Origin: Thermodesulfobacteriota bacterium
GTDB taxonomy: Bacteria; Desulfobacterota; Desulfobacteria; Desulfobacterales; Desulfatibacillaceae
DNA length: 14,345 nucleotides
Direction of reading: 5' to 3'
Assembly (NCBI GenBank): GCA_040753055.1
Contig: JBFMHL010000078.1
Location: 1-14,345 of the forward strand
Shown: positions 4 to 6,818 of the stretch, piece after piece
Layout: each line of letters starts with the position of its first letter
How positions within the stretch are numbered: position 1 is the stretch's first letter
Notes under the pieces: generated by a model
The model's database searches: none
Told to the model about the DNA's origin: nothing
What the model saw: only the letters and a program-made list of their open reading frames with translations
Program-made: the position numbers and the translations under genes

Positions 4-750
4 TTAAATGTTCACGCGGCGGATTGCCACGCGTTCGCCGTCGAAGTGGATCATCTGCCCGCGCAGTGCAGGCCCGCGTCCCGCCAGGATGCGGATGGCT
101 TCAGCGGCCTGGATTCCGGCGATGACGGCAACGGCGGGCGAGAGGACCGCGGGCGGCTCCTTTGCTTCCTTCGCGTTGTGGAAAAGGCGGTCGAAGGCCT
201 CGTGGTCCGCGGGAAAAAAGGTCGCGGCCTGTCCGGACCATTGGGAAACCGCGCCGTGGACGAAGGGAGCGTTGAGCGTCCGGGCCGCGGCGAAGGCTGC
301 GCGGCGGGAAGCGATATTGTCCAGGCCGTCCACGATGAGGTCCGCACCGGAGAAGATGTGAATGGCCCCCTTTTCCTCTATTCTGTCTACGCGGGCCATG
401 GCTCGGGTGAAAGGGCTTGCGTCGCGCACGGCCCGTGCCGCCTGGCGGGCCTTGGCCTTGCCCAGGGCCTTGCGGGTGCAGATGGGTTGGCGGTTGGTGT
501 TGGTCTCGTCGAAGTCGTCGTCGTCTATCAGGATGAGCCTCCCCACGCCCGCGCGGGCCAGCAGCAGGCAGAGGTGCCCGCCCAGGCCCCCCAGGCCGGC
601 CACAGCCACGCAGGAGCGCAGCAGGCGCTTCTGCTCCTCGGCGCTAAGCGCCGGGCTGTTGCGGGAAAGGGCTTCCGGCCAGATGCCCTGGTCCAGATCT
701 TCCGCCGCGATTTTCGAGGGCGGGATGGACGATTCGGGGTTTTGATCCAT
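4..750 (-). CDS. ThiF/MoeB/HesA-family E1-like adenylyltransferase (sulfur-carrier-protein activating enzyme); C-terminus runs off the window edge
   Basis: Real start is at MDQNPESS (ATG = revcomp of 748-750), not the upstream in-frame extension. Glycine-rich nucleotide loop VAVAGLGGLGG and the LILIDDDDFDETN motif are typical of ThiF/MoeB. The start abuts the stop of the upstream gene. No CxxC zinc motifs are visible in the part inside the window. Confidence 0.8.
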   Translation of the reverse strand: MDQNPESSIPPSKIAAEDLDQGIWPEALSRNSPALSAEEQKRLLRSCVAVAGLGGLGGHLCLLLARAGVGRLILIDDDDFDETNTNRQPICTRKALGKAKARQAARAVRDASPFTRAMARVDRIEEKGAIHIFSGADLIVDGLDNIASRRAAFAAARTLNAPFVHGAVSQWSGQAATFFPADHEAFDRLFHNAKEAKEPPAVLSPAVAVIAGIQAAEAIRILAGRGPALRGQMIHFDGERVAIRRVNI

Positions 751-752
751 GG

Positions 753-1280
753 TCACTGCTCCCAGGGTGAAAACTCCTCGTCGGGGTTGTCCACAATCCG
801 GGAAAGCCTCATGCTTGCGTCGTTCCGGATGGCTTCCTTCATTTCCTCGCCGAAGCCGCGGGACTCCATCCAGCGTTCCAGAAGAGGCCCGCCCGGCTTC
901 CAGAGCTCCATGGTTTCCGCTTCCGTCACCCAGGCCTTGAGCCTGATCCCGTGCTTTTTCAAGATGGCCCACACCGAGTCGCGGTTGCGCCGGTCGCAGT
1001 AGACCATCATGACGCACTCCTCCATCCCCAGGTTGGTGGGTGGGTTGCGGTCGTACTTGATGCAGGGAATCATGCGGGCTTCCACATAGGGATCCAGCTT
1101 GCGCGCGAGCTCGGCGAGCTTTTCCGCGCTTCCCAGCACCAGCCATTTTCCCCAGTAGGCCAGGACCTCCCCGTTGGTCAGCGGCCGCCCCTGGAACACG
1201 GTGTACTTTTCCCCGTGGAAGATCGCAGGATGGTACACGAAGACGAAGTGGCTTTCCGGCTGGTCCACGATCACCCTCAA
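753..1280 (-). CDS. Divergent MoaE-like protein (molybdopterin synthase catalytic subunit homolog), 175 aa
   Basis: Collinear motif matches to E. coli MoaE as I remember it: N-terminal VIVDQPE vs IVVGPQP; TVFQGRP vs VTFTGKVR; SAEKLAELARKL vs TEKALAEIVDEA; VMMVYCDRRNRDSVWA vs IVFVGVTSAHRSSAFEA; ELWKPG vs PFWKRE. Start ATG overlaps the MoaD-like stop (ATGA), which fits translational coupling. It sits between a MoaD-like and a MoeB-like gene. The canonical His-Arg pair appears to be substituted. Confidence 0.5.
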   Translation of the reverse strand: MRVIVDQPESHFVFVYHPAIFHGEKYTVFQGRPLTNGEVLAYWGKWLVLGSAEKLAELARKLDPYVEARMIPCIKYDRNPPTNLGMEECVMMVYCDRRNRDSVWAILKKHGIRLKAWVTEAETMELWKPGGPLLERWMESRGFGEEMKEAIRNDASMRLSRIVDNPDEEFSPWEQ

Positions 1281-1558
1281 CCTCCGGCGGAAAGCGGGAT
1301 GATGGAGATTTCGTCCCCGTCCTTCACCCTCGTTTCGAGACCGGACAGGGAGAGGTAGTTGTCGCCGTTTAGGAACACCAGCAAGCCCGAGGCCTTGCCT
1401 TCGGGGTGGTTCAGCCGCTCGGAAAAGAGCGGAAAACGCTCAGCGACATGGTCCAGGCATTCATCCAGGGTGGTTCCTTCGGAGCTTACTTCGTCCGCTC
1501 CGCCGAACCAGCGGGAGAGCGATCCCGGAACAAGAACCGATACCGGCATGGCGTTCAC
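1277..1558 (-). CDS. MoaD/ThiS-family ubiquitin-like sulfur carrier protein (93 aa, C-terminal Gly-Gly)
   Basis: The protein ends ...GDEISIIPLSAGG, with the GDE-x-x-x-P-x-x-GG C-terminal pattern typical of MoaD/ThiS. Size fits. It lies in an operon with an E1-like enzyme. No obvious SD; the start is 7 nt after the upstream stop, so coupling is likely. Confidence 0.8.
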   Translation of the reverse strand: MNAMPVSVLVPGSLSRWFGGADEVSSEGTTLDECLDHVAERFPLFSERLNHPEGKASGLLVFLNGDNYLSLSGLETRVKDGDEISIIPLSAGG

Positions 1559-1564
1559 TCCGGC

Positions 1565-1879
1565 TCAGGAAAAGGTGAGAACCTTGTCCGCTTCCCTCAT
1601 GATCTCGTAAAGATCGTCCATCCAGGCGATGGGGCAGCTGGCGGAGCCCGCGAGACCGTGGGCTTTCATGCACACCCCTCAGACGTAGAAGTCGCCGGTG
1701 AACTGGTTGATCTGGCCCATGACGTCGAAGGCCTCGCTCCCGGCGGACTCGAAGAGCACGCCCGCCCCCAGCATGAAGACGCTCACTTCGTCGCCCTTGC
1801 GCGCGCCCGTGTTGGCGATCCGAAGGGCGTTGACCATGGTTTCGCCGTCACTGGTGGCAATGATGACAAGCAGCTTCAT
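1565..1879 (-). CDS. DsrE/DsrF-family sulfur-relay protein with an in-frame UGA (predicted selenocysteine), 104 aa on read-through
   Basis: The track ORF 1679..1879 (66 aa, MKLLVIIATSDGETMVNALRIANTGARKGDEVSVFMLGAGVLFESAGSEAFDVMGQINQFTGDFYV) ends at TGA, revcomp of 1679-1681. Read-through in the same frame gives U-GVCMKAHGLAGSASCPIAWMDDLYEIMREADKVLTFS and stops at 1565-1567. The DsrE-family active-site cysteine motif (vC...a.Gl) lies only in the read-through part, and it creates a U-x-x-C motif. There is a SECIS-like hairpin 15 nt downstream of the UGA. RBS GGAGAGG sits 6 nt upstream of the ATG. As I recall, a DsrE-like selenoprotein family has been reported in Deltaproteobacteria. Confidence 0.65.
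1645..1664 (-). promoter_or_regulatory. SECIS-like stem-loop downstream of the in-frame UGA
   Basis: mRNA sense is AGCCC-A-CG-GUCU-CG-C-GGGCU: a 5+2 bp stem with single-nt bulges and an apical loop GUCU containing G and U. The stem starts about 15 nt 3' of the UGA, which matches the spacing and form of bacterial SECIS elements. Confidence 0.45.
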
Positions 1880-1900
1880 GGCCGCCTCTCCTGTTTTCCC

Positions 1901-3466
1901 CTACGCAGGCTTCTCGTTCTTTTCCTTCTTCTGCTGATGCTGCGCGACCTCGCCCAGGAAGGCGGGCAGATCGAGACCGGCCATGGCCGCCACGTCGTGG
2001 AGCGGGGGCAGGCTCTTCACCAGGCCGGAGAGGAAGTTGGCGGTGGAGGTCTTGTCTCCGTCCGCGCCGTCCCAGACCGTGACCTTGTCTATCTTGATGT
2101 TCTTGATGGCCTCCATCTGGGCGTTTACCAGGCTCTCGATCTTCTCCGTCAGGAGCAACGTGGCCACGGCCTTGGCGTCGCCGTTGCAGGACTTGATGAG
2201 CTCCAGGTAACCGGCGGCCTTGCTTTCCAGCACCATCTTCACGCCGCGGGCCTCGGCGCTGTATTTAAGCAGCACGGCGTCCGCCTCTCCGCGGGCCTCG
2301 CGGCGGGTGCGTTCGGCGGTGGCTTCGGCTGCGATCTCGATCTTTTTCCGCTCGATCTCCTGAACGACCACCTGCTCGGCGGTGAGGCGCTCCTGCTCGG
2401 CCTTGTACTGGGCCTTCTGGATCTCGGCCACGGCTTCCAGGCGGGCCACCTCTCCCTGCTGGTTGGCCTGGGCCTTCTTGACGGCCAGCCTCGCGTTGGA
2501 CTCGGCAATATTGGCCTGGGACGTGTTTTCGCCGTCCACGGCCTCGGCTTCGCGGCTCTGAACGTATACCCGGCGTTCGGCCTCGGCTTTTTTCTTGCCT
2601 TTTACGGATTCGGCCTCGTTCTCCGCCACCTTGATCTGCATAATCTTGTTGGCATCCGCTTCGCCGACGGTGGCCTTGGCTTCCTGCTGCTGTACGAAGA
2701 CCCGCTGGTCGGCCTCCGCCTGCTTCTTTCCCTTTTCGGCCTGGGCGCGGTTTTCGGCAACGCGGATTTCCTTTTCCCGCACCGCTTCGACCTCGCCGAT
2801 GGCGCCCATCTTTTCCTGGATCGCGACATCCACCTTGGCCTTGTTTACGGCCTCGGATGCGGCCTTCTTGCCGATGGACTCGATATAGCCGGACTCGTCG
2901 GTGATATCGGTGATGTTCACGTTGATGAGGTAGAGGCCAATCTTGTTGAGCTCTGGCGAGACATTCTTGCGGATGGCCTCCAGGAAGCTCTCGCGGTCCT
3001 GGTTGATCTGCTCGATGGTGAGGGAGGCGACCGTCAAACGGAGCTGGCCGAAGATGATCTCCTTGGCCATCTCCTCGATCTCTTTGGGGCTTAAGTTCAG
3101 AAGCCTTTCCGCGGCGTTGATCATGATGGCAGCTTCGGTGGAGATGCCCACCGTGAAGGTGGAGGGCACATTCACCCGGATGTTCTGCATGGAAAGAGCC
3201 TTCTGCAGGGGGATGCCGATGGTCATGGGCGTCAGGCTCATGTAGGAGTAATCCTGAATGAGCGGCCAGATGAGGGCGCCGCCGCCGTGCAGGCACCGGG
3301 CGGACTGGCCCCGCCCCACCTTGCCGTAGATCACCAGGATCTGGTCCGAGGGGCATCTTTTGTAGCGGGAGGCGAGGAACATGAGGGTGGCCACGATGAG
3401 AACCACCAGGGCCACGATGGGCAGAAGCCAGAGGCCGATGTCGAGATCCAGCGTATAACCGAACAT
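1901..3466 (-). CDS. SPFH/Band-7 flotillin-like protein (YqiK/FloA type), 522 aa
   Basis: Real start is MFGYTLDLDIGLWLLPIVALVVLIV... (ATG = revcomp of 3464-3466) with RBS AAGGAAGGGA 6 nt upstream. It has an N-terminal TM helix, an SPFH core, and a long charged EA/K/Q-rich coiled-coil tail (AEKGKKQAEADQR..., KKKAEAERR...). The in-frame upstream extension in the track lacks an RBS. Confidence 0.85.
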   Translation of the reverse strand: MFGYTLDLDIGLWLLPIVALVVLIVATLMFLASRYKRCPSDQILVIYGKVGRGQSARCLHGGGALIWPLIQDYSYMSLTPMTIGIPLQKALSMQNIRVNVPSTFTVGISTEAAIMINAAERLLNLSPKEIEEMAKEIIFGQLRLTVASLTIEQINQDRESFLEAIRKNVSPELNKIGLYLINVNITDITDESGYIESIGKKAASEAVNKAKVDVAIQEKMGAIGEVEAVREKEIRVAENRAQAEKGKKQAEADQRVFVQQQEAKATVGEADANKIMQIKVAENEAESVKGKKKAEAERRVYVQSREAEAVDGENTSQANIAESNARLAVKKAQANQQGEVARLEAVAEIQKAQYKAEQERLTAEQVVVQEIERKKIEIAAEATAERTRREARGEADAVLLKYSAEARGVKMVLESKAAGYLELIKSCNGDAKAVATLLLTEKIESLVNAQMEAIKNIKIDKVTVWDGADGDKTSTANFLSGLVKSLPPLHDVAAMAGLDLPAFLGEVAQHQQKKEKNEKPA

Positions 3467-3745
3467 GTTGTCCCTTCCTTTTAGAGAATTTCCCAGGCCT
3501 CCCGGTTCGGGTGCGGCCCGAAAGTCTTGCGATGCAGAGAACAGCCGGACAATGGGTTTGGGTCGGTCCGCCGCCACGGGAGACGTCGGCCCTGCGAGCC
3601 CGTTCGCCGGGGGGGCACGGGCCCCGGACGTGCGGCTGTTTTACACGGTGCGTATCAAAGCAGGATGGCTGCTGCGGTCCGCGAAGGCGCACCGTAGCCG
3701 GCTTGCCTTCCTGGGCCAACCTGATACCAGAAGCTCGCGCGGGCG

Positions 3746-4141: not shown

Positions 4142-4723
4142 CTACGGGGAAAGATCCGCGGAAACCAGGAGCTTGGTGCCGGCAAGGCCGGATACCGTAA
4201 CAGGGGTGCCTGTTTTCAGCTCCTTGCCGTCCTTCTCCATGGCTTCGAACTCCCGGAGCCGTCCGCTCACCTTCACCAAGACAATGCCCACGCCTTTTGC
4301 CGGAATGTTGAGGTACACCTCCCCGCGGCAGCCCACCGCGTCCTCCAGGGAAAGGGTTCCGGAGGACTGGAGCTTGAGCATCATGTGAAGAAGCTTGGCG
4401 ATGAGCCATACGGTGAAGAGCCCGGCAGCCGTGGCCCCGACAAAGGAAAGCGCGATGCCGGTGCGGCTCTGCTTGCTCATGGCGAGCCCCACCAGGCCGA
4501 ACATGAGGAAAAAGCCGGTCAGGCCCTGTACGGAAAGAAGCCGGAAACCGAAGTCGCCGTGGCCGGCGTCGCCCACATCGCCCGCCCCCAGGTCCCCGTC
4601 CCCGTGATGATCCATTCCCAGGAACTGAAGCGCCATGCGGACGATCAGGAGCAACCCTCCCAAGACGGCGCAAGCGAGGTAGATCAGGTCAACCAACGTG
4701 AGGTCCGTGAGGATGGTCTTCAT
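4142..4723 (-). CDS. NfeD-like membrane protein (YqiJ/YuaF type, flotillin partner), 193 aa
   Basis: It has an N-terminal TM helix, an Asp/Gly/His-rich stretch (MDHHGDGDLGAGDVGDAGHGDFG), and further TM helices. The C-terminal soluble beta-rich domain GEVYLNIPAKGVGIVLVKVSGRLREFEAM is typical of the NfeD OB-fold. GGAG lies 9 nt upstream of the ATG. Confidence 0.7.
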   Translation of the reverse strand: MKTILTDLTLVDLIYLACAVLGGLLLIVRMALQFLGMDHHGDGDLGAGDVGDAGHGDFGFRLLSVQGLTGFFLMFGLVGLAMSKQSRTGIALSFVGATAAGLFTVWLIAKLLHMMLKLQSSGTLSLEDAVGCRGEVYLNIPAKGVGIVLVKVSGRLREFEAMEKDGKELKTGTPVTVSGLAGTKLLVSADLSP

Positions 4724-4775: not shown

Positions 4776-5375
4776 CTATTGCGCGGCCGCCTTTTCGGCC
4801 TCCAGCCTTTTGATTTCGTTTTCTATGTTGGTCTGCTTCTGCTCGTAATCGGCCTGGGATTTTTCCAGCTGGTTCCGCTGATAGCGATATCGCCGGCCGG
4901 CGCGGTTTTGGTGCTTGCGAACTCCCATGGTTTCGACATCCTGCTTCTGCTCGTCGAGGCTCTTCTTTTCCTCCTCCAGCTTCTTGCGCTCCTGGTAGAG
5001 CTGGTTCAGACGGGCATCCCGGTTCCGAGCCTCGGCCTGCTGCCTTGCGGCGAGAGCGGATTTTCTCCGGGCTTCTTCCTCTTCCCGGCTGGTGGCGCTC
5101 GCATAGGGATTGACGAGAGCGGGACGAGCGGGCTCGGAAGTGTCGGGCGCGGCCGTCTGGGTGGTAGGAGTCAGTTGATCTGCGCCTTCGGCGGTCTGGT
5201 CCTCCGGGAGCTTGACGTACTCGGTGTCGCCTGCGCTGCCCGAGGGAATGGTGCCTGGGTCGTCGGTGTAATGCCAGTCTCCGTTTGCGTCCTGGTATCG
5301 GTAGTATCCGGCGTCCGCGGGGGAGGAAAAAAGGATCGCCAGGGCGCAACACAGGAGAAATGCGGCCCTCTTCAT
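4776..5375 (-). CDS. Secreted DUF4124-domain protein with C-terminal coiled coil (paralog B), 200 aa
   Basis: Start MKRAAFLLCCALAILFSSPADA is a signal peptide, with RBS AAAGGAAAAG upstream. The GYYRYQDANGDWHYTDDPGTIP signature that follows matches DUF4124. The C-terminus is a charged heptad-like coiled coil (EEEKKSLDEQKQ...KRLEAEKAAAQ). Confidence 0.75.
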   Translation of the reverse strand: MKRAAFLLCCALAILFSSPADAGYYRYQDANGDWHYTDDPGTIPSGSAGDTEYVKLPEDQTAEGADQLTPTTQTAAPDTSEPARPALVNPYASATSREEEEARRKSALAARQQAEARNRDARLNQLYQERKKLEEEKKSLDEQKQDVETMGVRKHQNRAGRRYRYQRNQLEKSQADYEQKQTNIENEIKRLEAEKAAAQ

Positions 5376-5548
5376 CGCTTTTCCTTTGGCTTTACGGGTT
5401 TGAGAATGACCTCGGCGTCCGGAGGTCTTGCCGATGGGCGCGGACGCCTCTGGCGGTCGGGTTTCGTTTTGGCCAAAGCCCCACGGAAGGCCTTTCGGGC
5501 TTTGCGCCTTTGCATGCCGGAAGCGGTCCGCGGCAGGCCGTTGCTTCA

Positions 5549-6124
5549 TTACGGGGTCCCTTCAGCCGCCCGCTTTTCTTCCACCTCGTTGAGCTCCTTC
5601 TCGTAGGCTAGCCTCTTTTGCTGGTAGGCGCCGATCCTGTCGTTGAGCTCCTGGATGCGGGAGTTCAACGCCCTGCCGGGTGAGGAGCGCTGTACGGACT
5701 TGCGGAGGGTTTCCACTTCTGCAATCTCGGCGGACAGAGCCTGATATTCTTCGTCCAGAGTCTTTTTTTGCACTTCCAGGCGCGCTTTGGCTTCTTGGTA
5801 CTCTTTCTCAGCCCGGGAGTCCTGCATGCCTGAAGCGGCATCCTCCGGCTGTGCCGTCTTCTTCTGGGAAGGTTTGGGCGCCTGGTTCCGGATGGCCTGC
5901 TCCCTGGCCGCCTGGTTTGTCGCCCGTTCCTCGGGGGTCAGGCTGTCTTCCACCTCCGTGTAGGTATCCACTTTGGGACGCTGGTTTGCAGGGACCTGGG
6001 AAAGATCGTCCGTGTAACGCACCGCACCGTTCTGGTCGGTGTAGCGGTAGAACTCGGCAAGGGCCCCGGATGAAAAAACGCCGAACACAAAAAAACAAAC
6101 CAAGGTCGCTGCGATTTTTTTCAT
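5549..6124 (-). CDS. Secreted DUF4124-domain protein with C-terminal coiled coil (paralog A), 192 aa
   Basis: Start MKKIAATLVCFFVFGVFSSGALA is a signal peptide; GGAGG lies about 10 nt upstream. The DUF4124-like signature is EFYRYTDQNGAVRYTDDLSQVP. The C-terminus is a coiled coil (KEYQEAKARLEVQKKTLDEEYQALSAEIAEVETLRK...). Domain order matches the downstream paralog. Confidence 0.75.
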   Translation of the reverse strand: MKKIAATLVCFFVFGVFSSGALAEFYRYTDQNGAVRYTDDLSQVPANQRPKVDTYTEVEDSLTPEERATNQAAREQAIRNQAPKPSQKKTAQPEDAASGMQDSRAEKEYQEAKARLEVQKKTLDEEYQALSAEIAEVETLRKSVQRSSPGRALNSRIQELNDRIGAYQQKRLAYEKELNEVEEKRAAEGTP

Positions 6125-6152
6125 GACGCAGAGCCTCCGGATCGGAAAAGAA

Positions 6153-6818
6153 CTAACGGCCTTTTTTCTGGGACGTGATTTTCTGCTGGGCCTGGCGAAC
6201 CAGGTACTCCGCCAGGGAAAGGCCGAGTTTTTTTGCCTCGAGCTTCTGCATCTCGATGTTGAACACGGCGACGAGCTCCGGCGGCACGGGCATGCCGAAC
6301 TCGCGCTGGAAGGTTTCCGTGAGCTTCTCCATGGAAGGGTTATCGCCGGAAACCACATTGCGCAGAAGCTCGATCTTGGATTTGCCGGTGGCTACCTTGA
6401 CCCCGGCGGATACCACAGCCTTGCGCCGCAGCTCGGCACGGAAGAATGCCACGATGGCTGGGGAGGGTCTTTCCCCGCGTTTTTCCAAAAAGACCTGCTG
6501 GAGCTTTTCGGTGCTGGGCTCGTCCTGGGCCACAACGGAGCGCACCAGCTCCAAGGCCGACTCGCCCGCGGTGCGGGTAATTTCTTCCTTCTTTTTTTCC
6601 CTCCGGGCGACTTCCTTTTGGAAGAGCTGTACCAGGTCGGGAGTCGCGGGGCGGCCGAACTCCTCCATCACCGTCTTGTGCAACACGGAAAGAGAAGGGT
6701 TTTCCTGCGCCGCTACCGTTTTGACCAGAGCCACCTTCATCTTGAACAGAAGGTCGCCTTCGCCGGGAAGATCGGACGGATTGGGAGCCGGATTCGATGA
6801 TTCGTTTGAAGCCTGCAT
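6153..6818 (-). CDS. Hypothetical protein made of three tandem ~55-aa internal repeats (221 aa); family not recognised
   Basis: Repeat units: (1) KMKVALVKTVAAQENPSLSVLHKTVMEEFGRPATPDLVQLFQKEVARRE; (2) ALELVRSVVAQDEPSTEKLQQVFLEKRGERPSPAIVAFFRAELRRK; (3) KIELLRNVVSGDNPSMEKLTETFQREFGMPVPPELVAVFNIEMQKLEAK. Shared pattern is lv+.Vv..#nPS.ekL...f.eefG.P..Pe.V..F..E. GC3 codon bias is strong. The plus-strand ORFs overlapping it are R/S-rich antisense artefacts. Confidence 0.65.
   Translation of the reverse strand: MQASNESSNPAPNPSDLPGEGDLLFKMKVALVKTVAAQENPSLSVLHKTVMEEFGRPATPDLVQLFQKEVARREKKKEEITRTAGESALELVRSVVAQDEPSTEKLQQVFLEKRGERPSPAIVAFFRAELRRKAVVSAGVKVATGKSKIELLRNVVSGDNPSMEKLTETFQREFGMPVPPELVAVFNIEMQKLEAKKLGLSLAEYLVRQAQQKITSQKKGR

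Follow-up and report, generated by a model that had tools for sequence, protein, structure and literature searches.

An in-frame UGA probably decoded as selenocysteine in a DsrE-like gene of a Thermodesulfobacteriota contig

The question raised by this locus is whether a TGA codon inside a small gene of a Thermodesulfobacteriota bacterium ends a 66-amino-acid protein or is read through as selenocysteine (Sec). The gene lies on the minus strand of a 14,345-bp contig (JBFMHL010000078.1) of a metagenome-assembled genome (MAG); the whole of this stretch was analyzed and is referred to here as the window. The open reading frame (ORF) at 1679..1879 starts with the ATG at 1877-1879 and ends after 66 amino acids (aa) at the TGA of 1679-1681, and 5 nt upstream of the ATG the sequence GGAGAGG (1885..1891, minus strand) reads as a Shine-Dalgarno-like element that presumably functions as such. 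An earlier note, prepared from the DNA sequence without database searches, had proposed that this TGA is recoded as Sec in a protein of the DsrE family, and translation of the minus strand agreed with its description of an ORF halted at that codon. When the frame is followed past the TGA, U and 37 further residues, GVCMKAHGLAGSASCPIAWMDDLYEIMREADKVLTFS, are added without interruption up to a second TGA (1565-1567), giving the 104-aa product, Sec67 included, that the note had anticipated. The internal TGA encodes the first residue of a U-x-x-C motif completed by the downstream Cys (U67-G68-V69-C70), again as had been claimed. When the read-through product was compared with Pfam, with a placeholder at the TGA, residues 1-103 matched the DsrE/DsrF-like family PF02635 over the whole model (positions 1-116 of 116), with a score of 36.7 bits against a gathering cutoff of 22.7 and an expectation value (E) of 5e-9. 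Since this match requires residues 1-103, the DsrE domain is complete only when the TGA is read through. The coding sequence so defined, 1565..1879 on the minus strand with the stop included, has the same architecture as 68 homologous loci, and the copy in the window shows no defect besides the internal TGA. We consider it very probable that the region encodes one DsrE/DsrF-like, Sec-recoded protein of 104 aa, not two small ORFs. Each check suggested in the earlier note that was run gave a favorable result, and the recoding proposed there is supported by the invariance of the TGA, by selection on the codons downstream of it, by homologs with Cys and by a conserved hairpin.

A scan of species-representative genomes gave 70 homologous loci from the Desulfobacterota and the Nitrospirota (Thermodesulfovibrionales); the motif codon was located in 68 of these, and with the window the comparison comprised 69 genes. 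Among the Desulfobacterota loci are some from complete genomes, those of Desulfosarcina variabilis and D. widdelii, and others from MAGs of Desulfarculia, Desulfobulbaceae, Desulfovibrionales and Syntrophobacterales. The codon at the position of U67 (1679..1681 in the window, minus strand) is TGA in all 69 genes, and the terminal stops of the homologous genes are mixed (TGA in 28, TAA in 27 and TAG in 10). The 62 intact genes contain no further stop within the 36 codons downstream of the TGA, and the mean column entropies of these codons are 0.36, 0.28 and 1.15 at the first, second and third codon positions, as compared with 0.56, 0.42 and 1.41 for the 66 codons upstream. Synonymous codon differences downstream of the TGA outnumber non-synonymous ones (23012 vs 14278). 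Judged from these codon comparisons, the third-position-biased entropy and the synonymous excess show that what follows the TGA is translated in this frame, under purifying selection and if anything with more constraint than the N-terminal part. The 37 residues after the TGA are the most conserved part of the family, which answers positively the question, posed in the earlier note, of whether this segment is conserved among DsrE homologs, and the position of the true stop at 1565..1567 (minus strand) is likewise conserved (...TF-stop).

A protein search with the read-through product yielded three kinds of match, namely clusters of 66 aa, clusters bearing Trp at the Sec position and clusters bearing Cys there. 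A true Cys at the U position, encoded by TGT or TGC, is found in three clusters that are 60-70% identical to the window protein (P0011, with YACGVC, and P0015 and P0016, both with YVCGVC). An exhaustive profile search for relatives gave 528 at E ≤ 1e-3. More distantly, a sister group of 106-107 aa, with 27-47% identity to the window protein, carries A-C-G-T-C-L-K at the position of U-G-V-C, so that the Cys expected in place of U in Cys homologs is seen both near and far. This sister group shares with the Sec subfamily its length, its fold, three conserved Cys positions and its C-terminus, with the motifs A-C-G-T-C-L-K, C-P-x-S-T-M-x-D-L-Y and S-D-K-V-x-T-F in succession, and differs from it in having Cys instead of Sec. 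Beyond U67, two residues stand out. Cys70 (codon TGC at 1670..1672, minus strand), the likely resolving or partner Cys of the UxxC motif, does not vary among close homologs and shows more than 90% conservation across the wider family. Cys82 (TGC at 1634..1636, minus strand) belongs to a C-P motif in which C82 and P83 are invariant in the close-homolog alignments and widely kept as CPxST in the Cys sister group, making it a third conserved, potentially redox-capable residue. Four members of the sister group (P0335, P0343, P0348 and P0350) have N-terminal extensions of 30-75 residues, partly hydrophobic and absent from the Sec subfamily, that could be signal peptides or membrane anchors. One Cys-encoding locus, L071 (gene at 870-1181 in L071/L072), is located between the tryptophan-biosynthesis genes for IGPS and PRAI.

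Downstream of the UGA, a hairpin resembling a bacterial Sec insertion sequence (SECIS) occupies 1645..1664 on the minus strand, with the strands AGCCCAC and GCGGGCU enclosing the loop GGUCUC (1652-1657). The hairpin starts 15 nt after the UGA, has 6-7 bp and carries G and U in its apical loop, in line with the stem-loop of the earlier note, and it is conserved with covariation across 65 distinct sequences that were aligned from the TGA onward without indels. In the helix columns 19-24/31-36, 85.6% of the cells are standard pairs, as compared with 26-56% when the 3' strand is displaced by 1-3 columns. Compensatory changes were found at pair 19-36 (U-A in 36 sequences, G-C in 16) and at pair 21-34 (C-G in 58, U-A in 4, G-C in 1), and none of 500 column shuffles reached the observed pairing or covariation score. 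Since pair 19-36 couples the first base of a Ser/Ala codon with the synonymous third base of a Gly codon, its covariation is not explained by protein constraint alone. The loop reads GGUCUG in the family, and the GGUCU shared with the window is identical to the apical motif of the Escherichia coli fdhF SECIS, the sequence of which was verified in 5,419 E. coli genomes. As in fdhF, the hairpin lies within the coding sequence just 3' of the UGA; unlike in fdhF, the GGUCU motif begins 22 nt after the UGA instead of 19 nt, placing the loop 3 nt farther away, the stem is shorter with one position frequently unpaired, and a conserved lower stem was not found among the 65 sequences. At gathering thresholds Rfam reported no family in the window, and scanning 1540-1900 at permissive settings yielded nothing beyond a chance match to a small nucleolar RNA; neither outcome is informative for a bacterial SECIS. 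We regard the support for the hairpin as comparative. As a separate observation, locus L059 from a Thermodesulfobacteriaceae MAG (positions ~6198-6215) has a second in-frame stop, a TAG four codons after the Sec TGA (GVCA*AHGV), in a gene that is otherwise intact, and its hairpin is shifted in register (GGCUCA/UGAGCC); the extra TAG could be a sequencing error, a sign of a pseudogene or something else.

For this gene we infer Sec insertion, binding of SelB to the hairpin, and redox or sulfur-relay chemistry. In the proposed mechanism, which follows established bacterial Sec decoding, the UGA at 1679-1681 would be decoded as Sec with the hairpin at 1645-1664 as the bacterial SECIS, its apical loop binding SelB-GTP-Sec-tRNA(Sec) and delivering Sec to the UGA in the A site. 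Sec67 would then be inserted instead of termination occurring, and translation would run on to the stop at 1565-1567. In the finished protein, Sec67, placed after a beta-strand, would be the attacking nucleophile of the U-x-x-C motif, with Cys70 as the resolving residue and Cys82 possibly assisting as a relay residue or third ligand. From its motif and its family, the protein most likely serves in selenol/thiol redox reactions or as a (per)sulfide carrier.

Several observations weigh against this interpretation. The folding energy of the hairpin in a single-sequence fold is ordinary (z = 0.01 vs shuffles), and in a coding region so rich in GC a SECIS cannot be argued from thermodynamics alone. 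RNAalifold missed the hairpin and gave no more than a trivial helix of 3 bp; the probable cause is pair 23-32, which 31 of the 65 sequences, the window (A·C) among them, leave unpaired. Folding of the window sequence by itself also produced a longer lower stem, but this was rejected, being 66.5% paired and without covariation. The hairpin is also partly set by coding constraint, through the conserved amino acids S/A-H-G-L-x-G. Moreover, the same hairpin is kept almost unchanged in four Cys-encoding loci (L071-L074, with TGT/TGC), so that by itself it does not separate Sec from Cys genes; its presence there would fit a recent Sec-to-Cys conversion, leaving a 'fossil SECIS', or amino-acid constraint. 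With regard to the decoding machinery, selA, selB, selD and tRNA-Sec are not in the window, which is the whole MAG contig and contains no tRNA gene; tRNA-Sec was also not found in 60 related loci, a result that is uninformative. With regard to the protein, no member of the family has been characterized experimentally (PMC13188914). An AlphaFold model of the Cys homolog P0011 has a mean pLDDT (predicted local distance difference test) of 72.8 but is unreliable across the active-site segment, residues 64-82, where the value falls below 50. The top Foldseek matches of this model are 3pnx, 2hy5 (DsrEFH) and 2d1p (TusBCD), with a template modeling (TM) score of about 0.5 and a weak E of about 0.01, so the modeled fold appears weakly DsrE-like; sequence searches of the Protein Data Bank (PDB), with the single sequence and with a profile, gave no meaningful match. 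Finally, the active-site Cys78 of TusD (sequence from E. coli NC_000913.3) aligns one column off U67 in an hhalign run that was circular, TusD being in the profile, and the alignment places the two residues only at the same strand end, within one residue of each other.

Other explanations of the TGA also have to be considered. The locus could hold two genes, a 66-aa N-terminal DsrE fragment and a separate peptide of 34-36 aa (MCMK/MKAHGL) with GAGGGG as its ribosome-binding site. Both ORFs exist mechanically, the downstream one measuring 36 aa if it starts with the GTG at 1675 and 34 aa if it starts with the MKAHGL ATG; the purine-rich GAGGGG overlaps the TGA, and most database entries are 66-aa proteins. 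However, neither piece is a complete DsrE domain by the Pfam match, and G68-V69-C70, which lie between the TGA and the putative ATG/GTG start, are conserved in the 69 genes with synonymous variation (GGN GTN TGY). In loci L033 and L040 the sequence is GVCAK, with GCG/GCA replacing the ATG, so that there is no downstream ATG at that position. The upstream and downstream parts always share one frame with exactly one TGA between them, and the Cys homologs are single continuous proteins. Homologs ending at the equivalent stop and followed by a separate gene, which the earlier note had named as a check, were not found, and its view of the 66-aa plus 34-aa pair as the less parsimonious reading is upheld by comparative data that contradict two genes and leave this possibility extremely improbable.

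It is just as hard to credit that a Cys codon (TGC/TGT) became TGA in this MAG, by nonsense mutation in a pseudogene or by sequencing error. The change from TGC to TGA requires a single base, errors do occur in MAG contigs, and extra stops or frameshifts are present in a few homologous loci (L044, L059 and L066-L068), but the same TGA recurs in every one of the 69 genes in both phyla, the complete isolate genomes of the two Desulfosarcina species included, the frame downstream is intact and selected, and the window copy is otherwise free of defects. A reading of UGA as a standard amino acid, whether Trp (code 4), Gly (code 25) or the product of near-cognate suppression, has on its side the Trp (YVWGVC) of about 13 database entries and a 14.3-kb contig that shows no Sec machinery. 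Nevertheless, TGA serves as a normal stop in this contig: it ends a ThiS-like gene (...AGG-stop), a gene for a 173-aa protein, a GNAT gene and a histidine kinase gene, and it is also the terminator of the DsrE-like gene itself; the ThiS-like protein ends at its family-defining Gly-Gly immediately before the TGA, and the TGA of the 173-aa protein falls where its 173-aa homologs end. The metagenomic contigs behind the Trp entries are short (510 bp to a few kb), and these entries are probably gene-caller artefacts, because genomic loci encoding the same YV-x-GVC all have TGA. Homologs without TGA carry Cys, never Trp or Gly, and the codon sits within a C/U-x-x-C motif and is followed by the conserved SECIS-like hairpin. 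We therefore regard a standard amino acid at this position as very unlikely and retain Sec as the preferred reading.

By sequence comparison, the window gene is a member of the already known DsrE-like UxxC selenoprotein family, known since 2004-2005. Published members of the family (Pfam02635, U-x-x-C) come from the Sargasso Sea selenoproteome (PMC1088965), from Desulfovibrio vulgaris (PMC1794560) and from the delta-symbionts of Olavius (PMC1976440), and a 2026 review lists the DsrE-like selenoprotein with WP_014524487.1 and credits its reference 12 (PMC13188914). The host lineage fits as well: among bacterial groups, Deltaproteobacteria are reported to be the richest in selenoprotein families (PMC1794560). 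When the window protein was compared by BLASTP with the Sargasso sequence AACY01115178 (...VPIYIUGGCAEARGV...EADRVVTF), taken from the supplement of PMC1088965, U aligned on U with an E of 1e-5 and 32% identity over 44 residues. The published proteins and the one studied here have in common the Pfam domain, a U-G-x-C directly after a hydrophobic strand, the C-terminal ...EAD(K/R)V(L/V)TF, a SECIS hairpin with G in the apical loop, and hosts among the sulfate-reducing Deltaproteobacteria/Desulfobacterota. They differ in that the Sargasso motif is U-G-G-C, as compared with U-G-V-C in the window, and in that the window subfamily has an extra invariant segment, C-P-(I/V)-(A/G)-W-M-D-D-L-Y, which includes the third Cys and is lacking in the Sargasso sequence.

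Two further relatives help to place the protein. TusD and DsrE (2d1p, 2hy5) belong to the same fold family, and their reactive Cys ends the same central strand as the Sec here, within one position. In contrast to the window protein, to which they are ~21% identical, they have a single active Cys without a CxxC and form heterohexamers with paralogous subunits encoded adjacently. No second DsrE-family gene (DsrF-, DsrH- or TusBC-like) adjoins the gene in the window or is found among the recurrent neighbors of the 70 loci, and because such adjacent paralogues are missing, the protein is not regarded as a subunit of the TusBCD/DsrEFH type. In NCBIfam no model recognizes the family; the only match is to YedF (TIGR03527) and is below threshold, covering residues 33-101 of the protein and positions 123-192 of the model with an E of 0.0015 and 18.4 bits vs a cutoff of 110. 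In its DsrE-like C-terminal domain YedF has C-G-x-C as the counterpart of U-G-V-C, whereas its SirA/TusA-like N-terminal domain is absent from the window protein and YedF is not itself a selenoprotein. Identity with YedF was rejected, since the score is far below the cutoff and the match is restricted to the C-terminal domain. YedF has been described as a candidate selenium-metabolism protein, with its CGxC discussed as a possible selenium-related redox site (PMC5322559).

The earlier note had also predicted that standard gene callers would truncate or split the gene, and this proved correct. In the protein collection that was searched, ~85 clusters are exactly 66 residues long, end in ...GDFYV and are named "hypothetical" or "DsrE family"; they include entries from complete genomes, such as DPPLL_24900 of Desulfofustis limnaeus. 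The ~13 clusters with Trp are "full-length" at 103 aa and presumably arise from gene calling with code 4. With the family already known, the finding is mainly an annotation correction, and a family model that flags the Sec position would repair entries across the Desulfobacterota and Nitrospirota; our current understanding of Sec recoding is unchanged by this gene. Within the subfamily Sec predominates, with TGA in 68 of 68 genomic loci vs three Cys clusters in the metagenome-derived protein search, and the Sec subfamily and its Cys sister group offer a clean natural comparison for working out what Sec contributes to a C-G-x-C active site of the DsrE type.

Modest leads to the function of the family, which was predicted 20 years ago, come from the genes that recur near it. 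Within ±3.5 kb of the DsrE-Sec gene, an ArsR-family helix-turn-helix (HTH) regulator is found at 20 of the 70 loci, an 88-aa protein without a Pfam match at 15, a small J-domain protein at 10 and a thioredoxin-reductase-like flavoprotein at 7. These neighbors fit a role in thiol/selenol redox chemistry or metal(loid) stress, without proving it.

In the window itself the gene has different neighbors, all on the minus strand. Upstream, a flotillin/SPFH (Band 7) gene at 1901..3577 (Pfam Band_7, E = 1e-26, and Flot; NCBIfam FloT-like below cutoff) has its stop 21 nt before the ATG of the selenoprotein gene. Downstream, 15 nt after the selenoprotein stop, begins the gene for a ThiS/MoaD-like protein of 90 aa that ends in Gly-Gly (1277..1549; Pfam ThiS, E = 2e-11; NCBIfam MoaD/SAMP1/Urm1-like below cutoff) and is probably co-transcribed with the selenoprotein gene. 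It is followed by the gene for the conserved 173-aa protein at 753..1274, the middle gene of a ThiS/173-aa/ThiF cassette, which has no match in Pfam, NCBIfam or PADLOC and more than 100 homologs at 60-71% identity, mostly from Desulfobacterota MAGs and one from a Spirochaetota MAG. The cassette ends with a ThiF/MoeB-like E1 adenylyltransferase gene of 248 aa and stop TAA at 4..750 (Pfam ThiF, E = 9e-49). The same cassette recurs in other Desulfobacterota (loci L075-L077, L080-L081 and L083-L085).

It is conceivable, though in our view very unlikely, that in this lineage the selenoprotein gene joined an operon with the genes for the ThiS-like, 173-aa and ThiF-like proteins and that its product acts as chalcogen donor. 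On this proposal, the E1-adenylated Gly-Gly C-terminus of the ThiS-like protein would become a thio- or seleno-carboxylate by the action of a persulfide or selenopersulfide on Sec67, and the upstream flotillin/NfeD pair could point to membrane localization; if true, it would link the selenoprotein directly to a ubiquitin-like sulfur-carrier pathway. A conserved functional operon was rejected as the main explanation, since the cassette and the DsrE gene do not occur together elsewhere: the DsrE gene is absent from 11 of 11 ThiS-cassette loci, and the regions flanking the DsrE gene in the 70 DsrE-Sec loci contain no flotillin, ThiS, 173-aa or ThiF gene, except for one unrelated ThiF. By this comparison the juxtaposition is specific to the lineage of the window. 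A reading of the E1/ubiquitin-like cassette as a defense system was set aside, as PADLOC recognized the generic E1 domain alone and had no match to either of the remaining proteins, and the ThiF-like gene was rejected as a second selenoprotein (Sec-MoeB) because it ends in TAA.

Some minor features of the region were also recorded. The 173-aa protein sits where a sulfur-carrier system would place a partner enzyme. In L078 and L079, from a Desulfomonile tiedjei MAG, the ThiS-like gene and the 173-aa gene have no ThiF gene next to them and are flanked by a PNPOx-like gene and by MoxR-type AAA+/VWA genes, which makes these two genes the apparent core of the cassette. The longest ThiF-like ORF (4-1146) would have 380 aa, with its first ~132 codons overlapping the 173-aa gene in another frame; these extra codons look non-coding (Arg/Gly/Ala-rich), and the homologs and the Pfam match indicate the ATG at 748-750 as the likely true start, giving 248 aa. 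Farther upstream of the selenoprotein gene, an unassigned ORF of 193 aa occupies 4142-4723 on the minus strand, and two tandem genes for DUF4124-domain proteins of 257 and 269 aa (4776-6358, minus strand) lie upstream of this ORF and of the flotillin gene.

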